Assembly: GCA_001782235.1 (NCBI GenBank)
Contig: MFOC01000004.1
Span: 32,945 to 96,944, forward strand
Length of the DNA: 64,000 nt
From: Candidatus Levybacteria bacterium RIFCSPHIGHO2_02_FULL_40_18
Lineage (GTDB): Bacteria; Patescibacteriota; Microgenomatia; Levybacterales; GWA1-39-11
Direction of reading: 5' to 3'
Made by a program: the position numbers and the translations under genes. The notes under the pieces were generated by a model. The model worked only from the letters and a program-made list of their open reading frames with translations. It was not told the origin of the DNA and ran no database searches. Below, piece by piece: positions 1 through 47,403 of the stretch. The stretch's first letter is position 1. Each line of letters begins with the position of its first letter.

Positions 1-664
1 CGAAGGCTGAGGCTATTTTGTCGAGAATTTCAAATGCCGCTTCTTCGGTTTCCTTTGATACGCTCGCGCCCTCCTGATAAGTATATGCGATTAGCACATA
101 CGTATTTTGATTGATTTTAAACTCCCTAAAAGTAAAAGGAGCAAAGTTTTTTAACTTTTCAGAGCCGTATTCGGCGCTATTAAACTTAAGTATCGAGATT
201 AAAACTGGCTTTTCGCCTTGAACAATTGTTTTTGAAAAAGACGGCGAAACACCGTTTGTTACTGAAGATTCATCGGCAATACTCCAATCGGGAGGATATT
301 TAAGAGAGAATCCTTCGGCAGAATTAATGTACGTTTTCCAAGTTGTGGGGCCGGTGGCCACCGGCCCGGAGGGCCCCTGGCCCGTAGGGCAGGGAGTAAA
401 TTCACAGTTCGGTCCTGTGCGACCAACTGACGAACCATCAGGGCAGATTTTTGCCTCTTGAGTACATGCTTTCTGTTTGCTCGGATTGTTCAAAAATAAA
501 TACACTGCCGATGCGGTTCCGACTATAGCAAGAAGTATAAGCATTGCGGCGACTATTGGCAGTTTAAGTTTCGAGTTAGTTTGTTGAGGAGGGGTTTCTG
601 TTGTTTGTTCGACTGGCGAACTTTGAAATGGATCTTGATTCGGATTTTGCTTATCTTCTTCCAT
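1..664 (-). CDS. Hypothetical membrane-anchored, Cys-rich secreted protein (N-terminal part; ORF runs off the window edge)
   Basis: My manual reverse-strand translation from an ATG at 664 reads through to position 1 with no stop. It has one TM helix, then a Cys-rich region (CTQEAKICPDGSSVGRTGPNCEFTPCP) and a G/P-rich segment encoded by a GC-rich repeat. It is absent from the ORF track because it has no in-window stop. Confidence 0.4.
   Translation of the reverse strand, partial: MEEDKQNPNQDPFQSSPVEQTTETPPQQTNSKLKLPIVAAMLILLAIVGTASAVYLFLNNPSKQKACTQEAKICPDGSSVGRTGPNCEFTPCPTGQGPSGPVATGPTTWKTYINSAEGFSLKYPPDWSIADESSVTNGVSPSFSKTIVQGEKPVLISILKFNSAEYGSEKLKNFAPFTFREFKINQNTYVLIAYTYQEGASVSKETEEAAFEILDKIASAF
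345..395. repeat. GC-rich palindromic short repeat inside the minus-strand ORF 1..664
   Basis: gtggggccggtggccaccggcccggagggcccctggcccgtagggcaggg. It is in frame and encodes PTGQGPSGPVATGP on the minus strand. Confidence 0.5.
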
Positions 665-769
665 TCATCAAGTATTGCATAGGATAATCAGAGTTTCAAT
701 GGCATTCAAATTCAGCTAACATAATGTCTTGGTTCTAGCACAATAAAACCCCGTTTCAAACCTGTCTTA

Positions 770-1195
770 TTGAAATATGAATTTTGTTGTGATAAGAATA
801 AGGATATGTCAGAAGTAAACCCAGAGACTTCAATTCGGCCGGCAAAAATCCCTACAGAATTGCTTCATATCTCCAAGCGTAATCCCAACCGCGCGATATT
901 AATAGCACAACAAAGAACAGGAAGAGATGTTGCTGCCGCAGTCTCTGATGGGATCAGGTCGGCTGTTGATGTGGAACAAGAGCTTTTCAAAAAAGCGCAA
1001 GATTTCCAAACAAACCCGGCAGCAGAAGAGATGGCGGAAGTGCTATTTGCAAATTATGCTGACAAGCTTGCCATAGGTAGCGTACAAAGGGAAGGGTTAA
1101 CCGGTGTCAGCGGGCCTGAGATTAACAGACGAGCAAACAACATATACACCTATCTTCAAAGAGAGTTTCGCAGAAGGCGTTTACAGAAAGTTTAA
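770..1195 (+). CDS. Hypothetical protein
   Basis: 141-aa ORF. I recognise no motif. The start may be further in (MSEVNPE). Confidence 0.3.
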   Translation: MKYEFCCDKNKDMSEVNPETSIRPAKIPTELLHISKRNPNRAILIAQQRTGRDVAAAVSDGIRSAVDVEQELFKKAQDFQTNPAAEEMAEVLFANYADKLAIGSVQREGLTGVSGPEINRRANNIYTYLQREFRRRRLQKV

Positions 1196-1215
1196 ATCCT
1201 GTATTATTAATCTTA

Positions 1216-2310
1216 ATGTCCGAAAACGATTTTTGTCTTGCTTTTTCTCTGGCGCCTGGGGTGGGACCAAAAAGATTTCAGAATCTCCTAGAGATATTTG
1301 GATGGGCTGAAAAAGCATGGAATGGTTCGGAAGACAAATTTAAAGCTGCGGGAATTGGTAAGGTTAATTTTTCAAAATTCCAAGCATTTCGAAAGACATT
1401 CGATCTCGCCGGATACCGAAAGAAGCTCCGCAAAGCAAAAGTTGAGTTTATCCCGTTTGGTGATCGATATTATCCTAAACGACTTGCAAACATCGATAGT
1501 CCGCCAATTGGTCTTTTTATCAAGGGAAATAAAAAATTACTGGGTGAACCAAACGCTATTGCAGTTGTCGGTGCCCGAAAAATCACTTCATATGGCAGAC
1601 AAGTGACGGAAGATTTAGTTAGCGAACTTTGTTCGGCAGGGTTTATGGTAGTTTCGGGGATGGCGCTTGGCGTTGATGGAGATGCGCATAAATCGGCGAT
1701 CGATGCTCGAGGACCGACAATTGCAGTGCTTGGTTGCGGTGTGGACTGCCCATATCCCCGAGAGAACGAAAAACTGTATGAGGAAATTCTGGATTCGGGT
1801 GGCTTAGCAATTTCAGAGTATCCGCTCGGTATGCCGGCGAATGCGGGAACATTTCCGGCACGGAATCGGCTCATCGCCGCTCTTTCGATGGCGGTTTTAA
1901 TAACAGAAGCAGCAGAGGATTCTGGTTCGCTTATCACTGCACAATGCGCTGTCGATCAGGGTAAAAAGGTATTTGCTGTTCCGGGCCCTATTACTTCGCA
2001 AATGTCGAAAGGCACTCTGAAATTATTAAAACAGGGAGCAAATTTGGTAAGCTCGGCGGAAGACATCCTAAAGGAACTGGAAGTCAAAATTCAAAAGGCA
2101 AAAGGCAAAATTGAAAGTCAAAAGTTTAAAAGTTTAAATAAGGAAGAAAGAAAGATATTCGAATGCTTGGAGAATGAGGGGAAGACGGTTGATGAAATTT
2201 CGCGCGAAGCAAAAATCTCTATTGCAAAGCTCTCAACTATTTTATCAGGAATGGAACTAAAAGGAATTATTGCAAATTCGAACGGAAAATTTTCGATGAA
2301 TTTTATATAA
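1216..2310 (+). CDS. dprA: DNA processing protein DprA (Smf)
   Basis: Rossmann-like DprA core (AVVGARKITSYG ... VVSGMALGVDGDAHK ... AVLGCGVD) plus a C-terminal winged-helix tail. The length is typical. Confidence 0.85.
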   Translation: MSENDFCLAFSLAPGVGPKRFQNLLEIFGWAEKAWNGSEDKFKAAGIGKVNFSKFQAFRKTFDLAGYRKKLRKAKVEFIPFGDRYYPKRLANIDSPPIGLFIKGNKKLLGEPNAIAVVGARKITSYGRQVTEDLVSELCSAGFMVVSGMALGVDGDAHKSAIDARGPTIAVLGCGVDCPYPRENEKLYEEILDSGGLAISEYPLGMPANAGTFPARNRLIAALSMAVLITEAAEDSGSLITAQCAVDQGKKVFAVPGPITSQMSKGTLKLLKQGANLVSSAEDILKELEVKIQKAKGKIESQKFKSLNKEERKIFECLENEGKTVDEISREAKISIAKLSTILSGMELKGIIANSNGKFSMNFI

Positions 2311-2318
2311 TAAAACCC

Positions 2319-2717
2319 ATGTCAGGCGCGAATGAGACATTTTTTACGGTTGTAGGATGCATGGATGGGAGAGTCCAGAAAGCAATTTCAGAATTCGGCC
2401 GAACAAAATTCGGAGCAGAGTATCCTGACACAATTACCGAAGCAGGAATAGCCGGTATAATTGCAAATAACCCCGATCCTAAATTCGTTGAAAATTTAAA
2501 AACAAAACTTCTGGTTTCAATTGAAAAACACCACTCGAAAGGAATTGTTGTCGATGGTCACCAGGAATGCGCCGGAAATCCAGTAGATGATGAGCGCCAC
2601 AAAGAAGATATAAGAAGGTCTATTGAATTTATTCGCAATCTTATCGAAAACAAAATCCCAATCATTGGAGTCTTCGTTGTTAGGAATGACGAATCCTGGC
2701 AAGCCGAGGAAGTTTAG
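2319..2717 (+). CDS. Beta-carbonic-anhydrase-like protein
   Basis: CMDGR and GHQECAG motifs resemble the Cys-x-Asp-x-Arg and His-x-x-Cys zinc ligand motifs of beta-class carbonic anhydrases. The protein is only 132 aa, so the assignment is tentative. Confidence 0.4.
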   Translation: MSGANETFFTVVGCMDGRVQKAISEFGRTKFGAEYPDTITEAGIAGIIANNPDPKFVENLKTKLLVSIEKHHSKGIVVDGHQECAGNPVDDERHKEDIRRSIEFIRNLIENKIPIIGVFVVRNDESWQAEEV

Positions 2718-2851
2718 ATATTGATTTGTCCTCAAACTTCTGCTAAACTACGTTTTATCCTAAGACAGCAAGTGGTGAGTGAAATCGAACCATAAATCTT
2801 GCCGAGGGCCAGTCAGTTTATAAAGTTACAGGTTTGTAAAGTTATAAAGTT

Positions 2852-2873
2852 GCGTCCTCGAGGGCGCTTTTTT
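2852..2873 (+). terminator. Rho-independent terminator-like hairpin + T tract downstream of the dprA/CA-like operon
   Basis: GC-rich palindrome gcgtcctcgagggcgc followed by tttttt. Confidence 0.5.
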
Positions 2874-2938
2874 ATTGCTCCAAATCTTCTTAGGAAAAAA
2901 TATTTTATATTTAATATTTAATTTTTTATATTACTACT

Positions 2939-3460
2939 ATGCCTAGTCAGAGAAACATACAATTACTAGAAGAACTAAAACAAAAGGTTGATAAGGCAGC
3001 CGCTCTGTTTTTTGTTGACTATTCGGGATTAACCCACAGACAGCTTGAAGAGGTAAGACGCGAGCTAAAAGATAATGATTCAGAAATCGGAATTATTAAA
3101 AATACTCTTATGAACCTTGCATTACAAGAAAAGAAAATAGATGCAAAAGACCGTCTTCAGGGTCCATTCGCGACCCTATTTTCCTACGAAGATCCTATTA
3201 AAACCGTTAGGGTTTTGGCGGCTTTTATAAAGAAGTATGGCCTTCCAAAAATCAAATTCGGCTGGTTTGAAAATTCGATAATAGACGAAACCATGATAAC
3301 AAAGCTTGCTACATTGCCATCTCGAGAAATTCTTGTCGCAAAACTCTTGGGGACTTTAAATGCGCCAATCTCAGGTCTCGTTTATACACTAAGTGGAAAT
3401 ATCCAGAAGCTGGCAATGGTGCTAAAGGCAGTCGAAAGTAAGAAGCAGCCAGCTTCGTAA
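2939..3460 (+). CDS. rplJ: 50S ribosomal protein L10
   Basis: Typical L10 N-terminus (NIQLLEELKQKV ... ALFFVDYSGLT). It lies immediately upstream of rplL. Confidence 0.9.
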   Translation: MPSQRNIQLLEELKQKVDKAAALFFVDYSGLTHRQLEEVRRELKDNDSEIGIIKNTLMNLALQEKKIDAKDRLQGPFATLFSYEDPIKTVRVLAAFIKKYGLPKIKFGWFENSIIDETMITKLATLPSREILVAKLLGTLNAPISGLVYTLSGNIQKLAMVLKAVESKKQPAS

Positions 3461-3462
3461 CC

Positions 3463-3590
3463 TAGAAAATAGTTCTTGGAAAATGGAAAATAGTAATGGA
3501 AAGTGGAAACTAGAAAATAGATAAATTAAAACTAATTTCCAATCTCTAATTTCCATACCATTTTCTAATTTCTAATAACCAATTTCTATT
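3463..3590 (+). repeat. MITE-like AT-rich hairpin repeat, copy A (rplJ-rplL spacer)
   Basis: The left arm ctagaaaatagttcttggaaaatggaaaatagtaatggaaagtgg pairs with the right arm ...ctaatttccataccattttctaatttctaataaccaatttctatt. It is homologous to copies at 20628, 34531, 35818 and 40661. Confidence 0.6.
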
Positions 3591-3610
3591 GAACGGGGGT
3601 GAATTAATTT

Positions 3611-4009
3611 ATGGCAAAAGCAACAAAAGATGATTTGTTAAAACAAATTGAAGAAATGTCAGTTCTGGAGGTATCCGAATTAGTCAAGGCGCTTGAGGAG
3701 AAATTCGGCGTGACTGCAGCCGCCCCCGTAGGGGCGAGCCCTGCACAGACTGGTGCTGGGGTAGCACCTGAGGCTGGAGAGCCGGCAGAAGAACAAACCG
3801 TATTTAATGTTTGGATTCAGGCAGCAGGAGATAACAAGCTTTCAGTCATTAAGACTCTCAGGGAATTAGTTCCAACTTTGGGCCTTAAAGAAGCAAAAGA
3901 TTTAGTTGACACCGCTCCAAAAGAGGTAATGACCGCCGTCAACAAGAAAACCGCTGATGAAGCCAAGGAAAAGTTAACAGCAGCAGGCGCAACAGTCGAA
4001 CTCAAATAG
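3611..4009 (+). CDS. rplL: 50S ribosomal protein L7/L12
   Basis: Conserved N-terminal dimerisation helix, an Ala/Pro/Glu-rich hinge and a C-terminal domain ([12 protein letters not shown] ... ATVELK). Confidence 0.92.
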
Positions 4010-4103
4010 TTTCCAGTTTCGAGTCTCCAATTTCCAATTAGTCAACGAGTTGATCAATTGGCAACTGGAAATTGAGCTGTAATCTCGCTATAATACCTAA
4101 ACT

Positions 4104-12115: not shown

Positions 12116-12470
12116 ATAGAGACTGATTTGGAAGATCGCGGTACATTTGAGGATGACAGCTAATGACACGTTCATAATTACAATTTCCTTCAAATTTTAG
12201 GGACAAATTTTTTGCCCCGTAGCAATCTCCCGAAATCACTCATTTAAAGTTCGCTCTTTAAAAATTATTGTTCAGAAAACAAGACAATCGCAAAGATTGG
12301 ATTTCTTTGGAGTTTTGTTTTTGTTGGACAAACCATAAAGTTGTTCAGATAGTGGTAGGATCTTTTTCGAACATTTTTGTTCGAGAATTTTCTTTGACAG
12401 AGTACATTTTTTTGCCAGGTACCATTCGGTACCTGACTGCAAAAATTTTGACTCCGTCAAAATTTTTTTG

Positions 12471-14066
<1,596 letters not shown>

Positions 14067-20090: not shown

Positions 20091-20626
20091 TTCTTGGACC
20101 GCGAAAATTGCTAGAGCTGGTTCGTAAAAAAAAGTTGGTCGAGGGATTGTCAGAGCGCGAGCTAACGAATCCTGAAGGAGCGGGTTTTGATTTGAGGTTG
20201 GGGGAGGTTTATAAAATAAGCGGTTCGGCTTTTCTTGGTGAAACACACCGAAAGACCCCGAGCATAAAACTTGTTCAAAAATACAAAGAAGGCCAGAAGA
20301 GAACAATAAAAATAAAACCCGGAGATTTTTATCTTGCAACTACAATTGAATCGGTTAATACTCCAAAAAATTTGACAATAAATTTTAAACCTCGAACCAC
20401 AACTTTTCGTTCCGGTCTATTTCTTAGAACCGGAAATGTCGCTCCGGGATATCGCGGAAAATTGACATTCGCGATTAAAAATGAGGGACCAATAACCGTT
20501 GAGATTGAAATGGGCGCCCGTATTGTTCATGCGCAGTTTGAGGAGGTAAAAGGCGGCGGCTCGTCCTACCGCGGTCAATGGCAAGGCGGCCGCGTAACAA
20601 CAACCAATCGTGAAAAACAAATATAA
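20087..20626 (+). CDS. dCTP deaminase/dUTPase-family protein (second paralog)
   Basis: GAGFDLRLGEVYK ... IKPGDFYLATTIE is the dUTPase/Dcd beta-jelly-roll signature. It overlaps tmk by 4 nt. Confidence 0.65.
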   Translation: MILGPRKLLELVRKKKLVEGLSERELTNPEGAGFDLRLGEVYKISGSAFLGETHRKTPSIKLVQKYKEGQKRTIKIKPGDFYLATTIESVNTPKNLTINFKPRTTTFRSGLFLRTGNVAPGYRGKLTFAIKNEGPITVEIEMGARIVHAQFEEVKGGGSSYRGQWQGGRVTTTNREKQI

Positions 20627-20627
20627 A

Positions 20628-20763
20628 CTAGAAAATAGTTATTGGAAAATGGAAATTAGTAATGGAAAATAGAGAATAGAAAATAGTTAATAATTAATAT
20701 ATTGCCAATTTATAATATCTAATTTCCATAACCATTATCCAATTACTAATAACCAATTTCTAT
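20628..20763 (+). repeat. MITE-like AT-rich hairpin repeat, copy B (ends at the thyA start codon)
   Basis: ctagaaaatagttattggaaaatggaaattagtaatggaaaatag ... taatttccataaccattatccaattactaataaccaatttctATG. Confidence 0.6.
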
Positions 20764-21718
20764 GAAAAAACATCAAGAATACCAATACCTAGATTTGCTT
20801 CGTGACATTATGAAAAATGGTGTTAAGAAGCCTGTTTTTAATAATCCGGGAGTAACTATTATAAGTGTGTTCGGGCGTCAGATGCGATTCGATTTGTCAA
20901 CCGACTTTCCACTTCTGACAACTAAGAAATTGTTTACGCGAGGAATTATTGAGGAACTTCTGTGGTTTATAAAAGGTGATTCTAACATTAAATATTTAGT
21001 TGACCGCAATGTTCATATTTGGGATGAGTGGGCATATAAACCGTATAAAAATCAAAAACTTAAAACTAAAAACTCAAAACTACTTTCGCAGGAAGAATTC
21101 ATAGAAAAAATAAAAACTCTACCAGCAAGTAATCCTTTTGTTAAAAAATGGGGAGATCTTGGGAATGTTTATGGAGTGCAGTGGAGGAGATGGAAAACTT
21201 CGGACGGAAGAACAATAGATCAGCTCTTATGGGCAATTGACAAACTTAAAAAAACACCAACTCGAAAACACATTATTGTTTCCGCATGGAATCCGGAGTT
21301 TATATATGAAATGGCCTCACCCGGCAAATCAATGGCCTTACCTCCTTGCCACACACTGTTTCAGTTGGATGTTCGTAATAAAAAACTATCCCTCCATTTA
21401 TACATGAGAAGCGCTGATTTTTTCCTAGGTGTCCCTTTTAATATCGCAAGCTATTCACTTCTGACCATGATGCTTGCTCAAGTAACGGGATTAAAAGTGG
21501 GTGAGTTTATTTTGACTTTTGGCGATGTTCATCTTTACAGCAACCACTTCAAACAAGTTCGTGAACAATTAAAAAGGAAGCCAAGACCTTTTCCAAGGAT
21601 GAAAATTAATCTCAAAATTAAAGATATTGATGATTTCAAAATCGAAGATTTCAAACTAGTCGGTTACAATCCCCATGATCCAATAAAGGCTCCCGTAACA
21701 GTAGTCGGAGGATTTTAG
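20762..21718 (+). CDS. thyA: Thymidylate synthase ThyA (with internal insertion)
   Basis: Active-site region MALPPCHTLFQLDV, plus DLLRDIMKNG and SAWNPE motifs. A ~50-aa insertion is comparable to the L. casei-type ThyA. Confidence 0.9.
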   Translation: MKKHQEYQYLDLLRDIMKNGVKKPVFNNPGVTIISVFGRQMRFDLSTDFPLLTTKKLFTRGIIEELLWFIKGDSNIKYLVDRNVHIWDEWAYKPYKNQKLKTKNSKLLSQEEFIEKIKTLPASNPFVKKWGDLGNVYGVQWRRWKTSDGRTIDQLLWAIDKLKKTPTRKHIIVSAWNPEFIYEMASPGKSMALPPCHTLFQLDVRNKKLSLHLYMRSADFFLGVPFNIASYSLLTMMLAQVTGLKVGEFILTFGDVHLYSNHFKQVREQLKRKPRPFPRMKINLKIKDIDDFKIEDFKLVGYNPHDPIKAPVTVVGGF

Positions 21719-27524: not shown

Positions 27525-28328
27525 ATGCACGAGATTACACTTGAAGAACTTTTAGAAGCCGGTTGTCATTTTGGACATCAGGTAAACCGCAGAAACCCAA
27601 AAGCGGACATCTTTATTTTTGAGGCTCGTTCCAATATCCACATTATTAATCTTGAAAAAACTCGCGAAGGATTGGTTGCCGCAGGAAAATATCTTTTAGA
27701 TTTATCTTCAAAAGGCGGATACATCGTCTTTGTAGGCACAAAGCGTCAGGCAAAGGAAATCGTCAAGGAAGAGGTTGGTAGGGCGAAAAGCCTGAGCGCA
27801 AAAGGAATTTTCTATGTTACCTCACGATGGGTTGGAGGAACATTAACTAATTTTTCCGAGGTCGCAAAAAATTTTAAACGCCTTTCCCAGTTGAATGAAT
27901 TTATACAAAATCCACAACAAGAATATACAAAACGCGAGATAGTTCTATTCACTCGCGAGAGGGATAAATTAAAAAATCTTTATGAGGGGATTTCTGAAAT
28001 GGATAGAATTCCAGACGCCCTGGTAATAATTGGTACACAGCATGAAACTACAGCAGTTAGGGAAGCAATTAAAAATGACATGACAACTGTTGGAATCGTT
28101 GATACGAATGCGGACCCGACGGTAATAGAGTATCCGATTCCTGCAAACGACGATGCGGTCGGCTCAATCAAATTGATAACGTCATATTTAGTTGATGCCT
28201 GGATCGAGGGGGCGGACCGAGCCTCGGCTCCGGCGAAAGGCGAGGGAGCCCGGCCGCGAGGGGAGCGAGACAGCGGTGGAAAGGAATCTAAAGATACCAC
28301 AGGTACAAAGAGTACTAAGGGGGAATAA
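27525..28328 (+). CDS. rpsB: 30S ribosomal protein S2 (with GC-rich charged C-terminal tail)
   Basis: LLEAGCHFGHQVNRRNPK ... FVGTKRQA ... WVGGTLTNF. Confidence 0.92.
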   Translation: MHEITLEELLEAGCHFGHQVNRRNPKADIFIFEARSNIHIINLEKTREGLVAAGKYLLDLSSKGGYIVFVGTKRQAKEIVKEEVGRAKSLSAKGIFYVTSRWVGGTLTNFSEVAKNFKRLSQLNEFIQNPQQEYTKREIVLFTRERDKLKNLYEGISEMDRIPDALVIIGTQHETTAVREAIKNDMTTVGIVDTNADPTVIEYPIPANDDAVGSIKLITSYLVDAWIEGADRASAPAKGEGARPRGERDSGGKESKDTTGTKSTKGE

Positions 28329-34485: not shown

Positions 34486-34530
34486 TACATCGAATTATAC
34501 CATCCCCTTCGGTTAAAATTCTAAGCACGA

Positions 34531-34672
34531 AATCCTAAATTCTAAACAATATTAACTAATAGACAATGGTTGTTAGAAAATAGAAAATGGTAATGGAAAA
34601 TAGAGAATGGAAAATGGAATAGTATTGTTTCCAATTACCAATTTCTATTACTGGTATTTGTTTAGGATTTCG
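34531..34672 (+). repeat. MITE-like AT-rich hairpin repeat, copy C (with terminal inverted repeats AAATCCTAAA...TTTAGGATTT)
   Basis: aatcctaaattctaaacaatattaactaatagacaatggttgttagaaaatagaaaatggtaatggaaaatagagaatggaaaatggaatagtattgtttccaattaccaatttctattactggtatttgtttaggattt. Its exact reverse complement is at 40661..40802. Confidence 0.65.
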
Positions 34673-34690: not shown

Positions 34691-35809
34691 TTAGAGTCTG
34701 GCGGGGTTTATTCGTAGGATTTTGTCGTTGCCTTGGCGCACGGTTCCCCTGCCGTCGCGGTTGCTTGTTGTCACATAGAGCATACCGTCTGGTCCCAAAA
34801 CTACTTCCCGCAGCCTTCCATACTCGTTTTTAAAATGTTCGACCAATTTTTGTTCGCTTATTTTATATTCATAAAGCGCAGATCCCCTAAGCCCTGCAAA
34901 GAATATCGAGCCATTAAAATATGCCGTTCCGGCCGGTGCCCAAGTATCGCCTGATCCAGAATTAATAATTGGTGTTATTAAGCCTGATCGCGTTTCGACT
35001 CCCTGAATTTCAGGCCATCCGTAGTTTTTTCCAGCCTGGATCAGGTTAAGTTCGTCGAGTCCGCCCGGTGATCTTCCATGTTCTGTTGACCACAATTGAC
35101 CATTGTCATCCCAAGTAATTCCTTGAGGATTACGGTGTCCGTATGAGTAAATTATAGTATCAAATGGGTTACTTGGTCCTCTATTTCCATCTCTTGTAAC
35201 ACGCAGGATTTTTCCCGCAAAAGAATTCCTATCCTGCGCTAGAGATGGTTGCTGAGCATCTCCTGTAGTTATATATAGAAGCCCATCAGGGCCGAATTTT
35301 ATCCGGCCCCCATCGTGATTTGGCGCTCCCGGAATTTGGCCGACGATTATTTTTTCTTCCAAAAGTTTCTCTCCCTCAAACTTATATCGAACAACACGGT
35401 TTAGAGTGTTGCTGCCCGAGGATCGGTAGGTATAATAGAGGTAGATATTTTTATTAGTTTCAAAATTGGGATCAACGGCCACCCCGTGAAGTCCGCTTTC
35501 TGAGACTTGATGAACGGGAATTGTTGCGATTGGGTCGGATACGTTCCCGTTTGTATCAACCAGGCGAACACGTCCCGGCCGTTCGGTGACAAGCATTCGG
35601 CCATCAGGAAGAAAAGCCATTGCCCACGGCACTTCAAGATTCTCCGAAAGGATAGAAACAGTTTGGGCTTCACGCTCCGAAGGAGTGATAGTATCCGAAG
35701 GCTGCAAAATTCGGGACTCGGGGGGCCTGATTAGAACGATTGCTACCAGAAGCAAAACAAAGATACCAAGCCCGACTATTATTTTTGTCATAGTTTTGAT
35801 ATTATACAT
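34691..35809 (-). CDS. Soluble PQQ-dependent sugar (glucose/sorbosone) dehydrogenase-family beta-propeller protein
   Basis: LEVPWAMAFLPDGRMLVTERPGRVRLV ... HDGGRIKFGPDGLLYITTGD ... EHGRSPGGLDELN are typical sGDH/Ylil-family blades. It has an N-terminal TM anchor. Confidence 0.8.
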   Translation of the reverse strand: MYNIKTMTKIIVGLGIFVLLLVAIVLIRPPESRILQPSDTITPSEREAQTVSILSENLEVPWAMAFLPDGRMLVTERPGRVRLVDTNGNVSDPIATIPVHQVSESGLHGVAVDPNFETNKNIYLYYTYRSSGSNTLNRVVRYKFEGEKLLEEKIIVGQIPGAPNHDGGRIKFGPDGLLYITTGDAQQPSLAQDRNSFAGKILRVTRDGNRGPSNPFDTIIYSYGHRNPQGITWDDNGQLWSTEHGRSPGGLDELNLIQAGKNYGWPEIQGVETRSGLITPIINSGSGDTWAPAGTAYFNGSIFFAGLRGSALYEYKISEQKLVEHFKNEYGRLREVVLGPDGMLYVTTSNRDGRGTVRQGNDKILRINPARL

Positions 35810-35817
35810 TAGAAAAT

Positions 35818-35940
35818 AGTTATTGGAAAATGGAAATTAGTAATGGAATGTGGAAAATAGAAAATGGATATTAAAATACTAATTTCTAATATCTAATTTC
35901 CGAACCATTTTCTAATTTCGAATAACTAATTTCTTATTTC
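35818..35940 (+). repeat. MITE-like AT-rich hairpin repeat, copy D (immediately upstream of the cupredoxin RBS)
   Basis: ttagaaaatagttattggaaaatggaaattagtaatggaatgtggaaaatagaaaatgg ... ctaatttccgaaccattttctaatttcgaataactaatttc. Confidence 0.6.
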
Positions 35941-37758: not shown

Positions 37759-38644
37759 ATCTCTTATATTCCGTAAGTCTCAAGCCAAAGTAGCGTCCTA
37801 AAACTATATTCAGCGGCAGCAGGACAAGAATTATTTCAGGATAAAGCAATATATAGCCTCTTATAAATTCAATAGATAAAATCGCATACCCAATACTTCC
37901 CAAAAGAAGCGTAAAAAAAGTTACAACTATTGCCGGCTTTGTGCCTCTTGAGAGCTGGAGGCCCACGATTTTATCACTTAGAAGAATAAGAAGCAGCACC
38001 GGAAAGAAGGAAAGCTGGGTAATAGAGATAAGACCAAATGAAGCGCTTGTTACCAGACTGACAAACACGAAGACTGAAACTATAAGCATAGATATAGCCA
38101 TTTTTGGAAGCTGCATTATCCTGATTCGTTTAAGAATATATCTTGCAATGATCGAGGCTAAAAGTATGGTTGATAGAAGTATAGCACCGGCCTCCGGGCC
38201 TGTTGCTACCAGGGTAATTGCCAAAGCTATAGGGACGAGCATTTCAAGAGTTGGAAATCCAAGAATATTTCTCACAAATACAACCATGGTAGCAAGAAAA
38301 GGTAGAAGGAGAATTAATATAATTGTATTGGCAGGGATGCCGTTTCTCACCGCATATTGAACAAAAAAGCCCATAAAGTCGGTTAGCCCCGGGTCATTAA
38401 TTTGTCTTTTTGAGAAAAGAGCCAAGAATTCTTTCTTTGCCTTCTCCTCCTCAGGCTTTGTCAAATCTTCTTCCTTTCTTTTTTCAAGTTCCTTTTGTTG
38501 TTCTGCAGATGGGGTGGCAAGTTCTCCTGATTCGGTCGAAATTAAAGGCGTAGGCAAAACATTTATGGGTATTTGAGCAAACGACTGCCCGCTAAAGACT
38601 ACAGAGAAAGTTGCCAAGAATAATGCAAAAATCTTCCGCTTCAC
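37727..38644 (-). CDS. Polytopic membrane protein (7-8 TM) co-encoded with the ATP-grasp/protease gene
   Basis: Signal peptide, an extracytoplasmic charged segment, then ~7 hydrophobic helices. Its 3' end overlaps the ATP-grasp start. Confidence 0.5.
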   Translation of the reverse strand: MKRKIFALFLATFSVVFSGQSFAQIPINVLPTPLISTESGELATPSAEQQKELEKRKEEDLTKPEEEKAKKEFLALFSKRQINDPGLTDFMGFFVQYAVRNGIPANTIILILLLPFLATMVVFVRNILGFPTLEMLVPIALAITLVATGPEAGAILLSTILLASIIARYILKRIRIMQLPKMAISMLIVSVFVFVSLVTSASFGLISITQLSFFPVLLLILLSDKIVGLQLSRGTKPAIVVTFFTLLLGSIGYAILSIEFIRGYILLYPEIILVLLPLNIVLGRYFGLRLTEYKRFAELRRYVSQ

Positions 38645-40283: not shown

Positions 40284-40610
40284 ATGGTTAAGAGTTCCAT
40301 GTTTCTTAGTGAGGTTTTTCATTCTCTGTCTGATCCAACAAGAAGGAAAATTCTTGAAGGATTAAGTAAGCGTCCTCTGACCGTTTCTGAGATTAAGGCT
40401 CCTTTTAGAATATCGCTTGTTGCCATTTCAAAACATTTAAAAGTTTTGGAGCGTGCAAAACTTATTCGCCGCCAGAAAATGGGGAGAGAGCATATGATTC
40501 GTCTTCATCCCCAGCCGCTTCGCGATGCTCATCGCTATATAGAAAGTTTTAAAAAAGACTGGAGCCGCCAACTAGACGCCCTTGAGAAATTCCTCGAACG
40601 CAATACTTAA
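40284..40610 (+). CDS. ArsR/SmtB-family transcriptional regulator
   Basis: LSDPTRRKILEGL ... LTVSEIKAPFRISLVAISKHLKVLERAKLI is a winged HTH of the ArsR type. Confidence 0.8.
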   Translation: MVKSSMFLSEVFHSLSDPTRRKILEGLSKRPLTVSEIKAPFRISLVAISKHLKVLERAKLIRRQKMGREHMIRLHPQPLRDAHRYIESFKKDWSRQLDALEKFLERNT

Positions 40611-40637: not shown

Positions 40638-40656
40638 AATATCCCTCCGGGCCGGA
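40638..40656. repeat. GC-rich palindromic short repeat (CCTCCGGGCCGGAGG) adjacent to MITE copy E
   Basis: ccctccgggccggagg shares the GGCCCGGAGGG / CCCTCCGGGCC core with repeats at 345-395, 45262-45335 and 47353-47398. Confidence 0.5.
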
Positions 40657-40660
40657 GGCT

Positions 40661-40802
40661 AAATCCTAAACAAATACCAGTAATAGAAATTGGTAATTGG
40701 AAACAATACTATTCCATTTTCCATTCTCTATTTTCCATTACCATTTTCTATTTTCTAACAACCATTGTCTATTAGTTAATATTGTTTAGAATTTAGGATT
40801 TC
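40661..40802 (-). repeat. MITE-like AT-rich hairpin repeat, copy E (exact inverted copy of copy C)
   Basis: The reverse complement of 40661..40802 matches 34531..34672 base for base in my comparison. Confidence 0.65.
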
Positions 40803-42026
40803 GTGCTTCGAATTTGGGAGTGGGTGTATAATGGATTTATTATGAAAAAGGGGGTTGCCACATTTACGCTGGATCACGGAAGGTGCCCGCCATGGCTGTT
40901 TAATCGAATGGTGAATTTAGGGCGGGAGATGACTCGGGTTTTGATCGAGGAATATGGTCCTGATGAATTTGTTGAACGAATCTCAGATCCGGTTTGGTTT
41001 CAATCATTAGGTACCGTTCTCGCCTTTGATTGGAACGCATCCGGACTTACAACAATCTTGACCGCCGCGTTAAAAGAGGCGATTCGTGGGCAAGAAAGGC
41101 AATTCGGAATCTTTATTTGTGGAGGAAAGGGCGGAACTTCAAGAAAAACTCCGGATCAAATTCAATTTTGGGGAGAAAGAATCAGTCTACCGGAGAAATC
41201 AACTGAACAGTTAATTACAAACTCCAAAATGTCAGCAAAAGTTGATTCGGCCCTCGTTCAAGATGGATACACACTTTATCACCACGCGTTTTTCTTTTCA
41301 AAAAATGGCGCATGGGCGGTAGTACAGCAGGGAATGAATACTAATGCGAAGTCTGCAAGGAGATATCATTGGTTCGACAGGTTAACAACTGACAATGGAC
41401 AACTGACAACTGACAATGAAACAATCGATTTCGTAAATGAGCCGCATAAAGCGATTTCTGCACAGACTCGGCATGCAAATGTTCTAAATTTAGTCGCCGG
41501 CAAGAGTTCTAAAACTCGCGAAACTTCGGTTGATCTAATTCGCGAAGGTTATAAAAGGGTGAAAAGCGATCTTGAGCTGCTTCGTAAACATTCAAATGAA
41601 ATGTCAAAAGTGGTCGCTTTTAGTCAGGATGGGGAGGAGTATATTGCCATGGAGCTTTCTCGAAATGATTTCTTTCATCATCCGGTTGAATTAGAAAATT
41701 TTGCTAACTCTAAATATCTGGATCGAATTTTGCAGAAACTTTCGGATAGAAAGCCCGAGGACTACAAATCGCTAGTTTCATTCCAGGGGGTAGGTCCAAA
41801 GACGGTTCGTGCGCTCTCTTTAGTCTCGGAAATAATTTACGGTGCAATGCCTTCCTATATAGATCCGGCACGATATTCATTTGCCCACGGCGGAAAAGAC
41901 GCAATACCGTATCCTGTGGATCGAGAAACCTATGACAAAACAATCGAAATTATGCGAAAAGCAGTAAATCGTTCGCGCATCCCATTCACTGACAAGCAAA
42001 AAGCCCTACGCCGCCTCGCGGCGTAA
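40803..42026 (+). CDS. Hypothetical protein, DUF763-like
   Basis: 407 aa. The N-terminal GVATFTLDHGRCPPWLFNRMVNLGREMTRVLIEEYGPDEF resembles DUF763 family members as I recall them. The start may be the internal MKKG. It contains a small in-frame tandem repeat (LTTDNGQLTTDNE). Confidence 0.35.
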   Translation: MLRIWEWVYNGFIMKKGVATFTLDHGRCPPWLFNRMVNLGREMTRVLIEEYGPDEFVERISDPVWFQSLGTVLAFDWNASGLTTILTAALKEAIRGQERQFGIFICGGKGGTSRKTPDQIQFWGERISLPEKSTEQLITNSKMSAKVDSALVQDGYTLYHHAFFFSKNGAWAVVQQGMNTNAKSARRYHWFDRLTTDNGQLTTDNETIDFVNEPHKAISAQTRHANVLNLVAGKSSKTRETSVDLIREGYKRVKSDLELLRKHSNEMSKVVAFSQDGEEYIAMELSRNDFFHHPVELENFANSKYLDRILQKLSDRKPEDYKSLVSFQGVGPKTVRALSLVSEIIYGAMPSYIDPARYSFAHGGKDAIPYPVDRETYDKTIEIMRKAVNRSRIPFTDKQKALRRLAA

Positions 42027-42478: not shown

Positions 42479-42500
42479 TCTTGACAAGCAATAATGGTTT

Positions 42501-42934: not shown

Positions 42935-42950
42935 TAGTATAATACGCTAA

Positions 42951-43595
42951 GTGGAACCAAGGCTTTTAGAAAAGCTTGATAACTTTTTCTCTCAATTCAA
43001 AACTCAAAGGTATAGAAAAGGAGAAATTTTAGTTAGGGCGGGAGATTCGCCTTCGGGTATTTTTTACCTTAAGAAGGGGAGAGTTCGAGAGTACGCAATT
43101 TCAACAAAAGGAGAAGAGATTGTAGTTAATATATTTAAGCCTTCAGCGTTTTTCCCAATGTCCTGGGCAATAAACAACGCCCCAAACATATACTTCTTTG
43201 AAGCAATGGAAGATCTTGAGCTTGTTCGTGCGCCTCGTGAAGAAGTTATTGAATTTATAAAGAGAGAGCCCGAGGTTTTATACAATCTTCTTTCCCGTGT
43301 CTATATTGGTACGGACGGCCTTTTATCCCGGATGACATATCTTATGTCCGGCAGTGCTTACGAGAGGTTAGTTGCAGAGCTAATAATTGTTGCAAAACGT
43401 TTTGGAGAGAGAAATAGTAAGCAAATTACCATTGAGACGACCGAAAGAGACCTTGCGTCTCAAATAGGAATGACAAGAGAAACCGTAAGCCGTGAGATTA
43501 GAAAGCTTCGTGCCGTAGGGCTTATATCATTCGGTAAGAAAAGCCTTGTTGTAAAAGACATAAAAAGACTTGAAGAAGAGCTTCTGGCGAGTTAG
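42951..43595 (+). CDS. Crp/Fnr-family transcriptional regulator
   Basis: cNMP-binding beta-barrel (YRKGEILVRAGDSPSGIFYLKKGRVREY) and a C-terminal HTH (ERDLASQIGMTRETVSREIRKLRAVGLI). GTG start. Confidence 0.8.
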   Translation: MEPRLLEKLDNFFSQFKTQRYRKGEILVRAGDSPSGIFYLKKGRVREYAISTKGEEIVVNIFKPSAFFPMSWAINNAPNIYFFEAMEDLELVRAPREEVIEFIKREPEVLYNLLSRVYIGTDGLLSRMTYLMSGSAYERLVAELIIVAKRFGERNSKQITIETTERDLASQIGMTRETVSREIRKLRAVGLISFGKKSLVVKDIKRLEEELLAS

Positions 43596-43996
43596 ATTAC
43601 AGATTTTGTGATAGCTTCATTCGTTGAAACGATTCTATTCCTCTTTTTTAAGCTGCGAGGTAAACCCGTTGGTAAAAGATATCCCTGCCATTGTCCATCT
43701 CCTACAAATAACTCAAGATGGACAAGGTCCGTAAATTCGGGCTCTCCTTTGACTTCATACAATCTATAGTTCCCCATAGACACGATATTGCTGGTGTTAA
43801 ATTTTCGACGAGTCGAAACTAATATGTCACCAATAGAATCAGCCTTAATCCAGGCATATCTTGCTTTATCATCAAGCGTTAATATCTTTGTATGGTCAAA
43901 AGTTTCGATCACAGAATACTTACCAGTTTTTAACAATTTTATCATAGCAAGAAGATAATATCGTATTAAATCAATTAAAACATTGATTTGGATCAC
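43592..43996 (-). CDS. Hypothetical protein
   Basis: 134 aa. No motif assigned. Confidence 0.3.
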   Translation of the reverse strand: MIQINVLIDLIRYYLLAMIKLLKTGKYSVIETFDHTKILTLDDKARYAWIKADSIGDILVSTRRKFNTSNIVSMGNYRLYEVKGEPEFTDLVHLELFVGDGQWQGYLLPTGLPRSLKKRNRIVSTNEAITKSVI

Positions 43997-44140
43997 GGAA
44001 AATCCGTGACTTGGATTACTGAAAAACTACTTTTCATACACAATAATTAGATTGACAATGAAAGGGGGCGGCAGGATAAGTGCTTTTCCTCACCAAGATT
44101 TGGTGAGGGATGGAACAGATTCTACATAAGCTGAAATAGA

Positions 44141-44542
44141 ATGGGAGCAATAACCGTAAAAACAACGAAAAAAAGAGAAATAATTGACATTACGGATCGA
44201 ATCAATGACGTTCTGTCAAAGGGTGCGTTAACAATTGGCGTGTGTCACTTATTTCTTAGGCATTCAACAGCCGGCTTGACCACCGTGTACATGGATCCCG
44301 AGGCAGAGTTTGATGTATTGGATGCATTAGATACGGCGGTCGTGCACGTGATACCTCGTGAAAAATATGCCCACAGCCATTTTAAAACAAGACTTCCAAA
44401 TCACGTTATTGCTTCTTTCCTTGGATCGTCTCTCTCGATCCCATTTGAGGACAAAAAGCTTTTACTTGGTGATTTGCAAAGCGTTGCGCTTGTGGAGCTG
44501 AATGGTCCCCGCAATCGCGAAATTTTAATCTATTCAGAATGA
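44141..44542 (+). CDS. yjbQ: YjbQ/UPF0047-family protein (secondary thiamine-phosphate synthase-like)
   Basis: EIIDITDRINDVL ... HSTAGLTTVYMDPEAEFDVLDALDTAV ... HSHFKTRLPNHVIASFLGSSLSIP. Typical length and motifs. Confidence 0.8.
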   Translation: MGAITVKTTKKREIIDITDRINDVLSKGALTIGVCHLFLRHSTAGLTTVYMDPEAEFDVLDALDTAVVHVIPREKYAHSHFKTRLPNHVIASFLGSSLSIPFEDKKLLLGDLQSVALVELNGPRNREILIYSE

Positions 44543-45003
44543 AATATACAATTTCAACAAAACTATTTCGTCTCTCGGATAAAGACTATAAATATATACA
44601 AAAGCTTGCAGAAAAGCTCTTGCAATTTATTCCTTTCAAGGATTCCGATTATCCGCTACTTGAAATTGTTCTTCGAAAAAACAAGAAGAAAAGTCTTAAG
44701 GTCCAGCCGCTTCACGGACATGAAGCAGCTGATAATCCCGTGTATTATGATGGCAAATTAGACCTAATCCTTCCCAAAAAGCGCCTTGTCTCAAAGATGC
44801 TTGGTAAAACAGTGGACGAGGCCATAAAAGACGGGTTCGATGAATTATTTAGGGAACTTGAAACCTATAAAGGTTTGCATTTTGGTTCAGACAGTGAATA
44901 TTACGATCATGGAACGGTTCGCGGCCGGGCAGAGGAGTATTTTGAGACTTCAGGCCCGTTCTCCGACTCGGAGAGGGGTCTCAAGGAGTCAGAGGAGAAT
45001 TAA
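44539..45003 (+). CDS. Possible ribosome hibernation factor (HPF/RaiA-like) with acidic C-terminal tail
   Basis: N-terminal pattern MKYTISTKLFRLSDKDYKYIQKLAEKLLQFIP ... LLEIVLRK resembles the beta-alpha-beta-beta-beta-alpha HPF fold consensus. The similarity is weak. Confidence 0.35.
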   Translation: MKYTISTKLFRLSDKDYKYIQKLAEKLLQFIPFKDSDYPLLEIVLRKNKKKSLKVQPLHGHEAADNPVYYDGKLDLILPKKRLVSKMLGKTVDEAIKDGFDELFRELETYKGLHFGSDSEYYDHGTVRGRAEEYFETSGPFSDSERGLKESEEN

Positions 45004-45879
45004 ATGAGCATTAGCGAGAGGATAAATATTCTTAAAAAGTTCAAAAACCTTACTTATCCTATTTTGACTATTTACTTAAGTTTTTTGGGATCAAAAACCC
45101 CTAGCACGAGCGAGTTAAAAAGGCAATTTCATTCCCTTATGACTCAAAATTTAACAGCGCGAGAGAAGAAGCACTTCGGAAATACCATCCAAAGCATTGA
45201 TGATTATTTTGATGAAACTTACGATAGCCGGGGGAAGAGAAGCGTTGCTTTTTTTGGCAACGGACAACGGCCCGGCCTCCGCCCAGAGGGCTCTGGCCCG
45301 GCGGGAGGGGCGTCTGGCCCGGAGGGCGGGCTATTTGAGATTTTAGAATTTGAATTTCCAATCGCGCCTTTGTGTCGTATCTCAAATTCTGTTTTTCTTG
45401 ATCCGATAACCTCAGCGCTCTTAGAACATAAAAGATATTTAGTACTTCTCATCGATAGGGAAAAAACAAGGCTATTCACTGTTCATTTAGGAGAAATCAA
45501 AGAGCATGAGGATGTATTTATAAATATTGTTCCTCAAAAAGTTAGAGCAGATGAAGAGCATTTTTATGGGAGGAGCGACAAAATTTTCCGGCATACTGAA
45601 GATCATTTAAATCGGCACCTTAGGCTTGTTGCTGAAAAGGCACGGGAATTTATGAAAGGCAAAAGAATTAATTTTATTATTCTCGGTGGACATGAAGAAT
45701 TGTTCGAGAAGATGAAGAGACATTTACGCAAGGACATAAGAGATAAAATCGCGGGCGAATTTGTCACGGAACTCAATGTTCCAATAAACAGCGTGTATCT
45801 TGCAAGTAAAAAAATAGCAAAGCACATAGAACAAGATAAGGTCTATGCGGAGATGGAGTCGTCATTGGCAGGGGTATGA
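45004..45879 (+). CDS. Hypothetical protein, possibly eRF1/Pelota-like (bacterial 'host-attachment/baeRF' type). Contains an in-frame GC-rich repeat insert
   Basis: VLLIDREKTRLFTVHLGEIKE ... FIILGGHEELFEKMKRHL is reminiscent of baeRF-family proteins. The assignment is from memory only. Residues GQRPGLRPEGSGPAGGASGPEGG are encoded by the GC-rich repeat at 45262..45335. Confidence 0.3.
   Translation: MSISERINILKKFKNLTYPILTIYLSFLGSKTPSTSELKRQFHSLMTQNLTAREKKHFGNTIQSIDDYFDETYDSRGKRSVAFFGNGQRPGLRPEGSGPAGGASGPEGGLFEILEFEFPIAPLCRISNSVFLDPITSALLEHKRYLVLLIDREKTRLFTVHLGEIKEHEDVFINIVPQKVRADEEHFYGRSDKIFRHTEDHLNRHLRLVAEKAREFMKGKRINFIILGGHEELFEKMKRHLRKDIRDKIAGEFVTELNVPINSVYLASKKIAKHIEQDKVYAEMESSLAGV
45262..45335. 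repeat. GC-rich palindromic short repeat (two tandem units) inside the ORF 45004..45879
   Basis: ggcccggcctccgcccagagggctctggcccggcgggaggggcgtctggcccggagggcggg. Confidence 0.5.
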
Positions 45880-46118
45880 AAATGATGCGCGATATAACAT
45901 TAATTGAACAAATGGAACTGAGATTAGCGGGCATTGCGCGGCCCTATGAATTGGATGCGAAGCTATCCAAAAGGGAGGTGGAGTATTTTGAGAGGCATTG
46001 AAACATTAGATTACGAAATCCAAGGGTTCATGGAATTTGGAGACAATCTTTCTGAATATGGCATATGGAAAGAACAGGTCCAGATGGATGCAATTCGACT
46101 ACCTAAAAGAATAGGCAA

Positions 46119-46709
46119 ATGGGAATCGGGTCAATTAACAGAATTAACAAGACCATGACAGATCAGGAAAAAGCAATATATCTATCATACCTTAATATCA
46201 GGCAAAGTATATCTATACTCCTTCTCAAGCTTGTCTCCGTAGATGTCTTAAGTGCATTTTTTATTATTATTTCTTATTTTGCGCTTATCCAAGGACGCGA
46301 ACTGTTGGGCTTTGATCTTACTAATATTCCTTCCTTCGTGATTATTTTTGGGATCCTGGGAACGTTAAAAATCCTTACAACAAGCTATATAGTTTTGCTT
46401 TGGTTAAATGAATATTATGAGATCACGCCCGAGGCAATAATTCACAAAAGCGGAATTATTTTTAAGAAAGAGGAGAAATATAGCCTTAATAATGTTCGAG
46501 CTATGAACATTTCAGAGAATTTTATTGGAGAGATATTGAATTGCGGGACAATAACGATTTATGATATGTATATGCGAGAGTACCTTTCCCTCTATCTTAT
46601 CCATAACCCTGTAAGATATATACGTGTACTTGAAACTTTAAAACCTAATATCGAAATCAAAAAACAAGAAACAATTGTGCCATTAGTTAAGCCAACGGAG
46701 GTAAGGTAA
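46119..46709 (+). CDS. Membrane protein with bacterial PH-like (DUF304/bPH_2) domain
   Basis: Two TM helices, then YYEITPEAIIHKSGIIFKKEEKYSLNNVRAMNISENFIGEILNCGTITIY, typical of YdbS/YdbT-type bPH domains. Confidence 0.55.
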   Translation: MGIGSINRINKTMTDQEKAIYLSYLNIRQSISILLLKLVSVDVLSAFFIIISYFALIQGRELLGFDLTNIPSFVIIFGILGTLKILTTSYIVLLWLNEYYEITPEAIIHKSGIIFKKEEKYSLNNVRAMNISENFIGEILNCGTITIYDMYMREYLSLYLIHNPVRYIRVLETLKPNIEIKKQETIVPLVKPTEVR

Positions 46710-46716
46710 ACAATTA

Positions 46717-47403
46717 ATGAAAAATGAGGCTATGAATAACCGTGAAACACGCGAACAGGAACCAATAAGGACGAATTGGGTTGTTATAACAGGCCCACCT
46801 AGTTCGGGGAAAACAACGACACTCAAGGATTTAATGGAGAAACTGCAAGCTCAGAATTACTCTCAGGTTGAAGAGCAGGCAAGAAAGCTTATAGAGGAGG
46901 ATAAAAAAAGAGGAGTGCAAAGATTTGGAGATAGGACTTATGAAATCAATCTTAATAATAGAGTTTTGTCGGAAAGAGAAAGAATTGAAGCTTCTTTGCC
47001 GAAGGATTCCAGCATACTAATGGACAGGGGAACGCCCGATGTAGTTTCCTACATGAGATATTACGACCAGAATGAACAAGCTGCTATCGAAGCGTCCAAA
47101 AAATTCAGATACGCCAAGGTTTTTTATCTTGAGCCGCTTGTTTCGTACGAGCAGGACGTAACAAGAGTAGAGAATCCCGAGTTTGCAAAATGGATGCACG
47201 AGAATTTACCAAAAGTATATGAGGAGTTGGGGTATGAGATTGTTCGGGTACCTGTTTTTCCATATAGTGAGAGAACTTACGAATCAGAAGAAGAGAAGAG
47301 AAAAGACTCGCTAGGCCAGCGGTCAAAATTTATTATGGAGAAAATAAGTGAAGGCCTCCGGCCCTTGAGGGCCTCTGGCCCGGAGGGAGGTGGGAGAGAA
47401 TGA
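46717..47403 (+). CDS. P-loop NTPase (AAA_28-like predicted ATPase/kinase) with a GC-repeat-encoded C-terminal tail
   Basis: Walker A VVITGPPSSGKTT and Walker B-like ILMDRG. The last ~17 aa (EGLRPLRASGPEGGGRE) are encoded by the GC-rich repeat. Confidence 0.55.
   Translation: MKNEAMNNRETREQEPIRTNWVVITGPPSSGKTTTLKDLMEKLQAQNYSQVEEQARKLIEEDKKRGVQRFGDRTYEINLNNRVLSERERIEASLPKDSSILMDRGTPDVVSYMRYYDQNEQAAIEASKKFRYAKVFYLEPLVSYEQDVTRVENPEFAKWMHENLPKVYEELGYEIVRVPVFPYSERTYESEEEKRKDSLGQRSKFIMEKISEGLRPLRASGPEGGGRE
47353..47398. repeat. GC-rich palindromic short repeat at the 3' end of the ORF 46717..47403
   Basis: gaaggcctccggcccttgagggcctctggcccggagggaggtggg. Confidence 0.5.

Follow-up and report, generated by a model that had tools for sequence, protein, structure and literature searches.

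We analyzed a 64,000-nt stretch of contig MFOC01000004.1 (positions 32,945 to 96,944; hereafter the window) from Candidatus Levybacteria bacterium RIFCSPHIGHO2_02_FULL_40_18. At 41% GC, the window includes genes for 16S rRNA and ribosomal proteins along with others typical of the Candidate Phyla Radiation (CPR). Within it lie four copies, A to D, of a short GC-rich palindromic repeat (Table 1). Copy A sits antisense within an open reading frame (ORF) for a membrane-anchored protein, copy B lies within a gene for a bacterial eRF1-like protein, copy C spans the junction between an ATPase gene and a DUF5676 gene, and copy D is intergenic. These four sites belong to a real, dispersed, and structured family of DNA-level repeats that is found across phyla and enters genes without breaking them. 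For the analyses below, the window was extended to 81,165 nt with independent ENA and JGI assemblies (identical across the overlaps), public comparison loci are given L numbers, and P0094 is a compared protein.

A preliminary description, made from the letters of the window alone, had placed the repeat at 345-395, 40638-40656, 45262-45335, and 47353-47398. The repeat is indeed present at all four sites, and A, B, and C are read in frame as that description stated. Host ORFs stay in frame in either orientation of the repeat, with A translated from the strand opposite to B and C. The repeating unit, by contrast, proved longer than had been seen: it spans 33–34 nt, and the originally noted motif, GGCCCGGAGGG, is its 3' end only. 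No other 11-mer in the 81 kb of window plus flanks is as strongly enriched as this motif, which has four copies versus 0.0057 expected. Allowing up to one mismatch gives seven matches versus 0.42 expected – a count reached in none of 100 shuffles. Stretches with at least three GGCCC/GGGCC words within 30 nt occur in the 81 kb only at A, B, and C. A hidden Markov model (HMM) built exclusively from public copies and searched over the same 81 kb recovered A, B, C, and D with the E-values listed in Table 1 and gave no other match. The single-mismatch match at 38190 is a lone word in a seven-transmembrane ORF and was treated as chance.

Table 1. Repeat copies, their host genes, and a second repeat family in the window.
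Feature	Position	Strand	Description
Host ORF of copy A	2..664	-	membrane-anchored, Cys-motif module, weak PsbP-like match; full ORF 226 aa, start just outside the window
Copy A	357..389	+	full-length 33-nt GCCACCGGCCCGGAGGGCCCCTGGCCCGTAGGG; HMM E=2.7e-7
S2 tail	28204..28290 (28195-28275 in the preliminary description)	+	second in-frame GC-rich repeat family; partner L003:2505-2575
Copy D	40643..40659	-	short form GCCTCCGGCCCGGAGGG; HMM E=0.3
Host ORF of copy B	45004..45879	+	bacterial eRF1-like protein, baeRF_family10
In-frame insertion in the baeRF_family10 gene	45265..45327	+	63 nt, 21 codons; contains copy B
Copy B, unit pair	45275..45305	+	GCCTCCG-CCCAGAGGGC-TCTGGCCCGGCGGG; HMM E=4e-3
Copy B, extra partial unit	45313..45326	+	TCTGGCCCGGAGGG; 21-nt tandem duplication offset; HMM E=0.09
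AAA_28 ATPase ORF	46717..47403	+	last ~17 codons cross copy C; stop overlaps the next ATG
Copy C	47354..47387	+	full-length 34-nt GCCTCCGGCCCTTGAGGGCCTCTGGCCCGGAGGG; HMM E=1.2e-9
DUF5676 gene behind copy C	47400..47669	+	ATG at 47400

The element has the consensus GCC[G/T/A]CCGGCCC-loop-GGGCCTCTGGCCCGGAGGG, and a site alignment of A with C yields GCC[A/T]CCGGCCC-(GGA/TTGA)-GGGCC[C/T]CTGGCCCG[T/G]AGGG. Its core is made of two tandem copies of a 16-nt unit, CCnCnGGCCCnGAGGG, with CCGCCGGCCCAGAGGG and CCTCTGGCCCGGAGGG being the same at 13 of 16 positions. This dimeric organization accounts both for the 16-nt spacing within copy A and for the degenerate tandem units that lie upstream of some public copies. 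Among the matches listed, which comprise 117 public copies, variation is confined to position 4 and the 3–4 nt loop, and the rare variants elsewhere are compensatory. Consistent with these compensatory changes, a two-hairpin fold (GGCCC-loop-GGGCC plus CCC-GGA-GGG) is 98.7% paired over 59 distinct variants; at three pairs (12 cells) C-G is replaced by U-A, and none of 500 shuffles equalled the two-hairpin model. A second fold is possible, in which GGGCC pairs with a downstream GGCCC. An outer stem, GCCnCC/GGAGGG, was 82% paired, no better than shuffles, and is unsupported.

In its commonest form, of 33 nt, the element amounts to exactly 11 codons and is free of stops in all six frames; the ATA-loop form that is common in Desulfobacterota contains a TAG in one of them. 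A Rho-independent terminator was ruled out as an explanation because no T run follows the element in the window, in the printed public copies, or in the low-GC metagenome copies; its 3' neighbors are AGGTGA/ATG, coding sequence, or mixed sequence. No Rfam family matched the element in the window or at 12 public loci, either at the gathering threshold or at E-values of 1–10.

Copy B is a clean insertion. The 21 residues of its insert are missing from 16 of 16 baeRF orthologs in a protein alignment (62% identity downward), and in a DNA alignment the closest relative, L001, lacks exactly the 63 nt between conserved flanks. In an AlphaFold2 model the insert is coil between two beta strands, with pLDDT below 50, so the insertion point falls in a predicted disordered loop. 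The unit pair of B corresponds to the viral L017-type copy minus one base in each arm of hairpin 1 (GGCCC/GGGCC). In CPR-type genomes, comparison with solved homologs similarly identified 9–10 extra residues in a loop of TopA (L103) and in a beta-hairpin turn of a YbaK-like protein (L101).

Copy C occupies a different kind of site. Directly 3' of it, AGGTGG...ATG provides the Shine-Dalgarno sequence and start codon of the next gene, and the conserved GGAGGTG after the copy is the ribosome-binding site of the DUF5676 gene. The preliminary description had taken copy C for the C-terminal tail of the ATPase. The reading frame does continue through it, as LRPLRASGPEG, but C is more aptly viewed as an intercistronic element located on the next gene's ribosome-binding site. 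The ATPase of the closest relative ends 16 residues earlier, without a tail, and an AT-rich 57-nt spacer takes up the junction; other relatives have a different GC hairpin there or none. DUF5676 genes also lie downstream of the element in L068, L055, L166, and L167. At the same junction in relatives that lack C, we observed a third type of GC hairpin, CCCGCCTTCGC...GCTTCGGCGGG (L002:1446-1475 and L009:1589-1615), and similar hairpins are present in another metagenome contig and in phage contigs (L141, L013/L022). The ATPase/DUF5676 junction seems to collect GC hairpins.

Copy A differs from the public consensus by two substitutions outside the loop and encodes PTGQGPSGPVA, within a linker that follows a CEFxPCP motif. 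A canonical copy occupies the identical site, in the same orientation, in L108 (Levybacteria RIFCSPLOWO2_12_FULL_39_17), where the host protein has only the N-terminal module in common with the window ORF. From this correspondence, copy A is an old, shared copy that has gathered substitutions since. An insertion origin for A would rest on this comparison with L108 and is not proven. The module itself (residues ~30–95 of the host ORF) consists of an N-terminal transmembrane helix and a CTxEAKICPDGSxVGRTGPNCEFxPCP motif, and it recurs at 60–89% identity in more than 700 proteins. The C-terminal domains of these proteins are unrelated, and the module is a highly conserved, shuffled secretion or anchor unit of CPR bacteria.

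Copy D, 33 nt past the stop codon of ORF 40284-40610, is without the 16–17 nt that run from the loop through the second GGCCC – a deletion between two GGCCC direct repeats. It is not part of the AT-rich 155-nt repeat that adjoins it, as the other copy of that repeat lacks D. The preliminary description had also counted the charged, GC-rich tail of S2 as a related element. We found that this tail does not match the element HMM and represents a separate GC-rich repeat family. Its partner copy encodes the linker of a DsbA-like gene ~34 kb upstream of S2, outside the window. The two have ~75 nt in common, with 61 identical columns; because the shared stretch is partly in different reading frames, the homology is at the DNA level. 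The S2-tail motif had no match in IMG/VR.

Several lines of evidence establish that the element is likewise a DNA-level repeat, as had been proposed, and not a shared protein domain. Translation of one and the same DNA gives xPPAQRASGPEG, AAGPxGPLARRE, or, from the other strand, xPPGQRPSGPVA. In-gene copies use three reading frames and both strands, and identical copies are also intergenic. The GC content at third codon positions (GC3) of the inserts is 0.65–0.94, versus 0.367 in 12,752 host codons. A protein-level account, in which Gly/Pro-rich linkers are selected and the shared DNA simply follows from GGN and CCN codons, is very improbable in light of these observations. GP dipeptides do force GGNCCN, and the linker of A's host is Pro/Gly/Thr-rich in orthologs too, but the 33-nt identity extends to third codon positions and the linker DNA of P0094 is not GC-rich. 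The idea that the repeat is tolerated or selected as Gly/Pro-rich linker-coding sequence holds in one part only: tolerance is consistent with the clean insertion of B in a disordered loop, while positive selection as a linker is unsupported because orthologs of A's host have a linker of similar length.

We scanned public collections with a pattern for the middle of the element only, CCGGCCCN{2,4}AGGGCCNCTGGCCCG. The pattern matched 14 IMG/VR loci (viral contigs) and at least 116 loci in a collection of species-representative genomes. All but ten of the listed matches extend into the flanks that the pattern left unspecified, 5' as gcc[g/t/a] and 3' as g[a/c]ggg. The ten loci that lack this extension (e.g., L043, L071, and L075) come from genomes above ~58% GC and look like chance matches. 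Host labels among the matches listed include Deltaproteobacteria, Thermodesulfobacteriota, Syntrophaceae, Levybacteria, Woesebacteria, Curtissbacteria, Planctomycetota, Anaerolineae, an archaeon, and others, and Deltaproteobacteria RBG_16_49_23 alone has at least 25 loci. About three-quarters of the 117 copies among these matches are intergenic. Deposited phage genomes and plasmids yielded no true match to the element. A search of the searchable literature for the element's sequence string returned only unrelated primers and variants, and keyword searches likewise returned nothing on the element. Such near letter-for-letter conservation of 33 nt in uncultivated bacteria and phages that are unrelated and come from subsurface and sediment habitats implies that the element either spreads horizontally with high frequency or has a molecular partner common to its hosts.

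Copies in Desulfobacterota have a distinctive setting. [quoted passage not shown] Because the same MITE hairpins are found both with and without the core in their apical loop, the core is a separable unit. One carrier, at 1300-1500 and 4490-4670 of L033 (a Thermodesulfobacteriota metagenome-assembled genome, MAG), is a ~200-nt multi-hairpin MITE with the terminal inverted repeat (TIR) CCCCGTTAGAAAT. We observed MITEs with this TIR in many Desulfobacterota MAGs; the two copies in L033 are inverted and flank sugar-metabolism genes. The genes between them are housekeeping genes, and clustering of ORFs in the 8-kb flanks of ~105 loci identified no recurrent protein family beside the element (the best was found at 10 of the ~105). 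An associated transposase was rejected on these grounds.

These settings bear on the possibility that the element is a DNA site, akin to repetitive extragenic palindromic (REP) sequences, for a trans-acting HUH/Y1 transposase of the REP-associated tyrosine transposase (RAYT) type or for another protein that acts on single-stranded DNA hairpins. The size of the element, its GC-rich imperfect palindrome, and its high copy number in RBG_16_49_23 all fit a REP-like site, as does its location in the loops of other palindromes, and an orientation bias is expected of strand-specific mechanisms that act on single-stranded DNA. We nevertheless consider this explanation improbable. The element has no GTAG/CGTC tag and is common to several phyla, whereas REPs are typically lineage-specific (PMC3733652). 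The lack of a recurrent neighbor gene points the same way, though it concerns neighborhoods only and a RAYT acts in trans.

Relative to the nearest gene, sense copies outnumber antisense copies 55 to 31 at mid-GC loci and 10 to 2 at low-GC loci. One phage family, with genomes of 49–67% GC, has the element at a conserved position immediately behind the gene for the head-maturation protease. Scanning metagenomes for the element's 3' half followed by AGGTGA identified 41 loci, all of 37–45% GC. A start codon lies 3–10 nt downstream in 39 of these 41 copies, a figure that cannot gauge how often the element abuts a ribosome-binding site, since the pattern itself required AGGTGA. The genes downstream, drawn from the same pattern, are diverse and include rpoA, rplL, atpE, camelysin/TasA-like genes, and DUF5676 genes.

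One explanation for these positions is that the element functions in cis as an RNA module: it could enhance translation or provide a standby site, act as a 5' stabilizer, or form a hairpin for processing or protein binding. Such a module would have been recruited repeatedly, with the in-gene copies as accidents. Consistent with it, rpoA, rplL, atpE, and genes for major secreted proteins have the element directly upstream of their Shine-Dalgarno sequence and start codon; the sense bias and the conserved site in the phage family also fit. Each unit, moreover, pairs an anti-Shine-Dalgarno-like CCUC with GGAGG, and some loci have tandem degenerate units upstream of the Shine-Dalgarno sequence. Even so, the RNA module is a rather unlikely explanation on its own. 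About one copy in three runs antisense to its nearest gene, many are located in the loops of MITE hairpins at a distance from gene starts, and no Rfam family matches. The heterogeneity of the downstream genes, a list itself obtained with a pattern requiring AGGTGA, argues against a riboswitch-type regulator.

Alternatively, the element could be purely selfish or neutral DNA. Its positions at ribosome-binding sites and in hairpin loops would then reflect survivorship together with an insertion preference for purine-rich AG/GGAGG-like targets and for single-stranded loop DNA. In CPR copies the 5' flank is nearly always ..AG and the 3' flank AG or GA, resembling a 2-nt target, and when the element is taken out together with one AG, a plain AGGAGGTGA site is often restored. 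These flanks are suggestive of a target site but are confounded with the purine-rich context of ribosome-binding sites. Selfish DNA would also fit the absence of an associated gene, the copies scattered over coding-sequence loops, tails, MITE loops, and phage intergenic regions, and the decayed copies in the window (D, and A with its substitutions). Set against this are the preference for the sense orientation and the near invariance of all 29–30 non-loop positions across genomes of 37–71% GC, with compensatory changes, though such constraint could equally serve mobilization. We regard a purely selfish origin as possible but doubtful.

Our favored interpretation, to which we assign a probability of roughly 0.7, is that A to D are copies of an ultra-small GC-rich element, non-autonomous and spread horizontally, that probably acts on mRNA 5' of genes and whose in-gene copies are tolerated. 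The element is copied at the DNA level into new sites. A copy that enters a tolerant part of a gene (a loop, linker, or tail) leaves the ORF intact, the commonest form being 11 codons long and free of stops, and would then be translated as a Gly/Pro/Ala/Arg-rich segment. Most copies retained in CPR genomes appear to lie in sense, directly 5' of the Shine-Dalgarno sequence and start codon of a gene that is often highly expressed. An effect on mRNA is suggested by this preferred or retained position together with the sense bias; at gene starts the element would probably supply an additional GGAGG as well as a 5' or intercistronic hairpin. Copies within genes, such as A and B, would be tolerated by-products.

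Several observations weigh against this interpretation. The hairpin energies are strong in absolute terms but reach only z = -1 to -1.9 relative to dinucleotide shuffles, the second hairpin is a weak one of 3 bp only, and the independent compensatory events are few – a CTC/GAG subfamily plus two or three others. We found no consistent target-site duplication or terminal repeats, no mobilizing gene, and, among cluster members of the source population, no insert-free allele, which leaves recent mobility in this lineage unsupported. The linkers without an element in orthologs of A's host count against an insertion there, and the AGGTGA built into the metagenome pattern limits what it says about gene starts. 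Finally, taxon labels of MAGs may be wrong: loci labelled 'Gammaproteobacteria' are 39–40% GC, have loci in common with Woesebacteria, and look like CPR.

A bolder version can be formulated, though we consider it unlikely as a whole. The element might represent an undescribed class of ultra-small (33-nt) mobile elements that moves between phyla, probably via phages, and targets hairpin loops and ribosome-binding sites. It would serve as a portable 'hairpin plus Shine-Dalgarno' cassette that boosts or insulates the downstream gene while seeding Gly/Pro-rich loops in essential CPR proteins. Were this true, mitochondrial GC clusters would have a bacterial counterpart that serves a cellular function.

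The element offers a testable candidate for a mobile expression signal and a possible marker of DNA exchange among CPR bacteria, their neighbors, and phages. It also affects annotation, creating odd Gly/Pro-rich inserts and tails and fusing ORF ends to the ribosome-binding site of the next gene.

The window contains further repeats and structured features. AT-rich repeats of 125–155 nt, termed MITEs in the preliminary description, lie at 3463-3590, 20615-20764, 34516-34670, 35796-35937, and 40661-40815. They are made of the 7-nt words GGAAAAT/AGAAAAT, and all are just upstream of genes (e.g., between rplJ and rplL). Two copies are 99% identical and in inverted orientation, and a TATAAT-like box follows the two that were read out in full (34516-34670 and 40661-40815). 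These repeats look more like shared promoter or UP regions than like transposons. The 16S rRNA gene (12464-14045) has in its helix-6 region (12545-12645) an insertion that is AT-rich and internally palindromic, estimated by eye at ~50–100 nt, in a gene that is only ~50 nt longer than the 1533-position Rfam model. Words of the TTAACAATT type make up the insertion, and 62998-63033 contains similar ones. An L10 leader 5' of rplJ (Rfam match at 2741-2882, 47.7 bits, gathering threshold 44) is an ordinary feature.

Comparison with characterized systems clarifies what kind of repeat this is. REPs are GC-rich imperfect palindromes of 20–40 nt that bear a GTAG/CGTC tag, are extragenic and lineage-specific, and occur in many copies per genome (PMC3733652). 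The preliminary description of the element as REP-like is apt insofar as it is dispersed, present in many copies, and a hairpin-forming imperfect palindrome of similar length, and the mRNA-stabilizing role proposed for REPs would fit its intergenic copies. It is not, however, a genome-specific REP. The tag is missing from the consensus GCC[G/T/A]CC...GGAGGG, with GTAG appearing only as a mutation in A and in L124. Unlike REPs, the element also lies inside coding sequences, and it is near-invariant across phyla, its sequence being the same in phage contigs as in CPR, Desulfobacterota, and Planctomycetota.

Bacterial MITEs (Correia, ERIC, BOX, and others) are non-autonomous and can supply regulatory signals or in-frame fusions (PMC10969869). 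The element resembles them in being non-autonomous, and in Desulfobacterota it is embedded in a carrier that is itself a MITE. MITEs are typically 100–400 bp, however, whereas the 33-nt core has neither a TIR nor a consistent target-site duplication and occurs with and without a MITE. Its immediate flanks vary by context (TG|CA, CA|AG, TA|TA, or AG|AG).

The closest parallels in behavior lie elsewhere. Rickettsia palindromic elements (RPEs) are palindromic repeats found in frame in unrelated conserved genes, as extra surface segments compatible with the protein fold, and also between genes (Ogata et al. 2000, as reviewed in PMC10969869). They are ~100–150 bp long, are restricted to Rickettsia, and form several families with a conserved peptide (PMC10969869). 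Like RPEs, the element is a dispersed palindromic repeat that lies in frame in unrelated conserved genes of a small-genome bacterium as well as between genes, and baeRF, TopA, and the YbaK-like protein all have in-frame insertions at permissive sites of the RPE type. Unlike RPEs, it is 33–34 nt long, GC-rich in an AT-rich genome, near-invariant in different phyla and in phages, and located mostly between genes, at ribosome-binding sites. Its hosts are CPR bacteria, Desulfobacterota, and phages, and it has no sequence similarity to RPEs and thus does not belong to an RPE family. Selfish palindromes inside protein-coding genes, best known from Rickettsia, are thereby extended to the CPR.

The GC clusters of yeast mitochondria (e.g., GC42) are GC-rich hairpins of ~40 nt in an AT-rich genome, with variation concentrated in the loop, an AG target, and no known transposase (PMC4478555). 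The element shares with them a tiny GC hairpin in an AT-rich genome, constrained stems, loop variation, and tandem or merged arrays. GC42 targets AG, and CPR copies are mostly flanked by AG on both sides, though here this may just be Shine-Dalgarno context. The two have no sequence relationship, and the element resides in bacteria and phages rather than in fungal mitochondria. We conclude that the element departs from REPs in its tag and location and from the defining features of MITEs, and that it behaves like RPEs and yeast GC clusters while being a member of neither.

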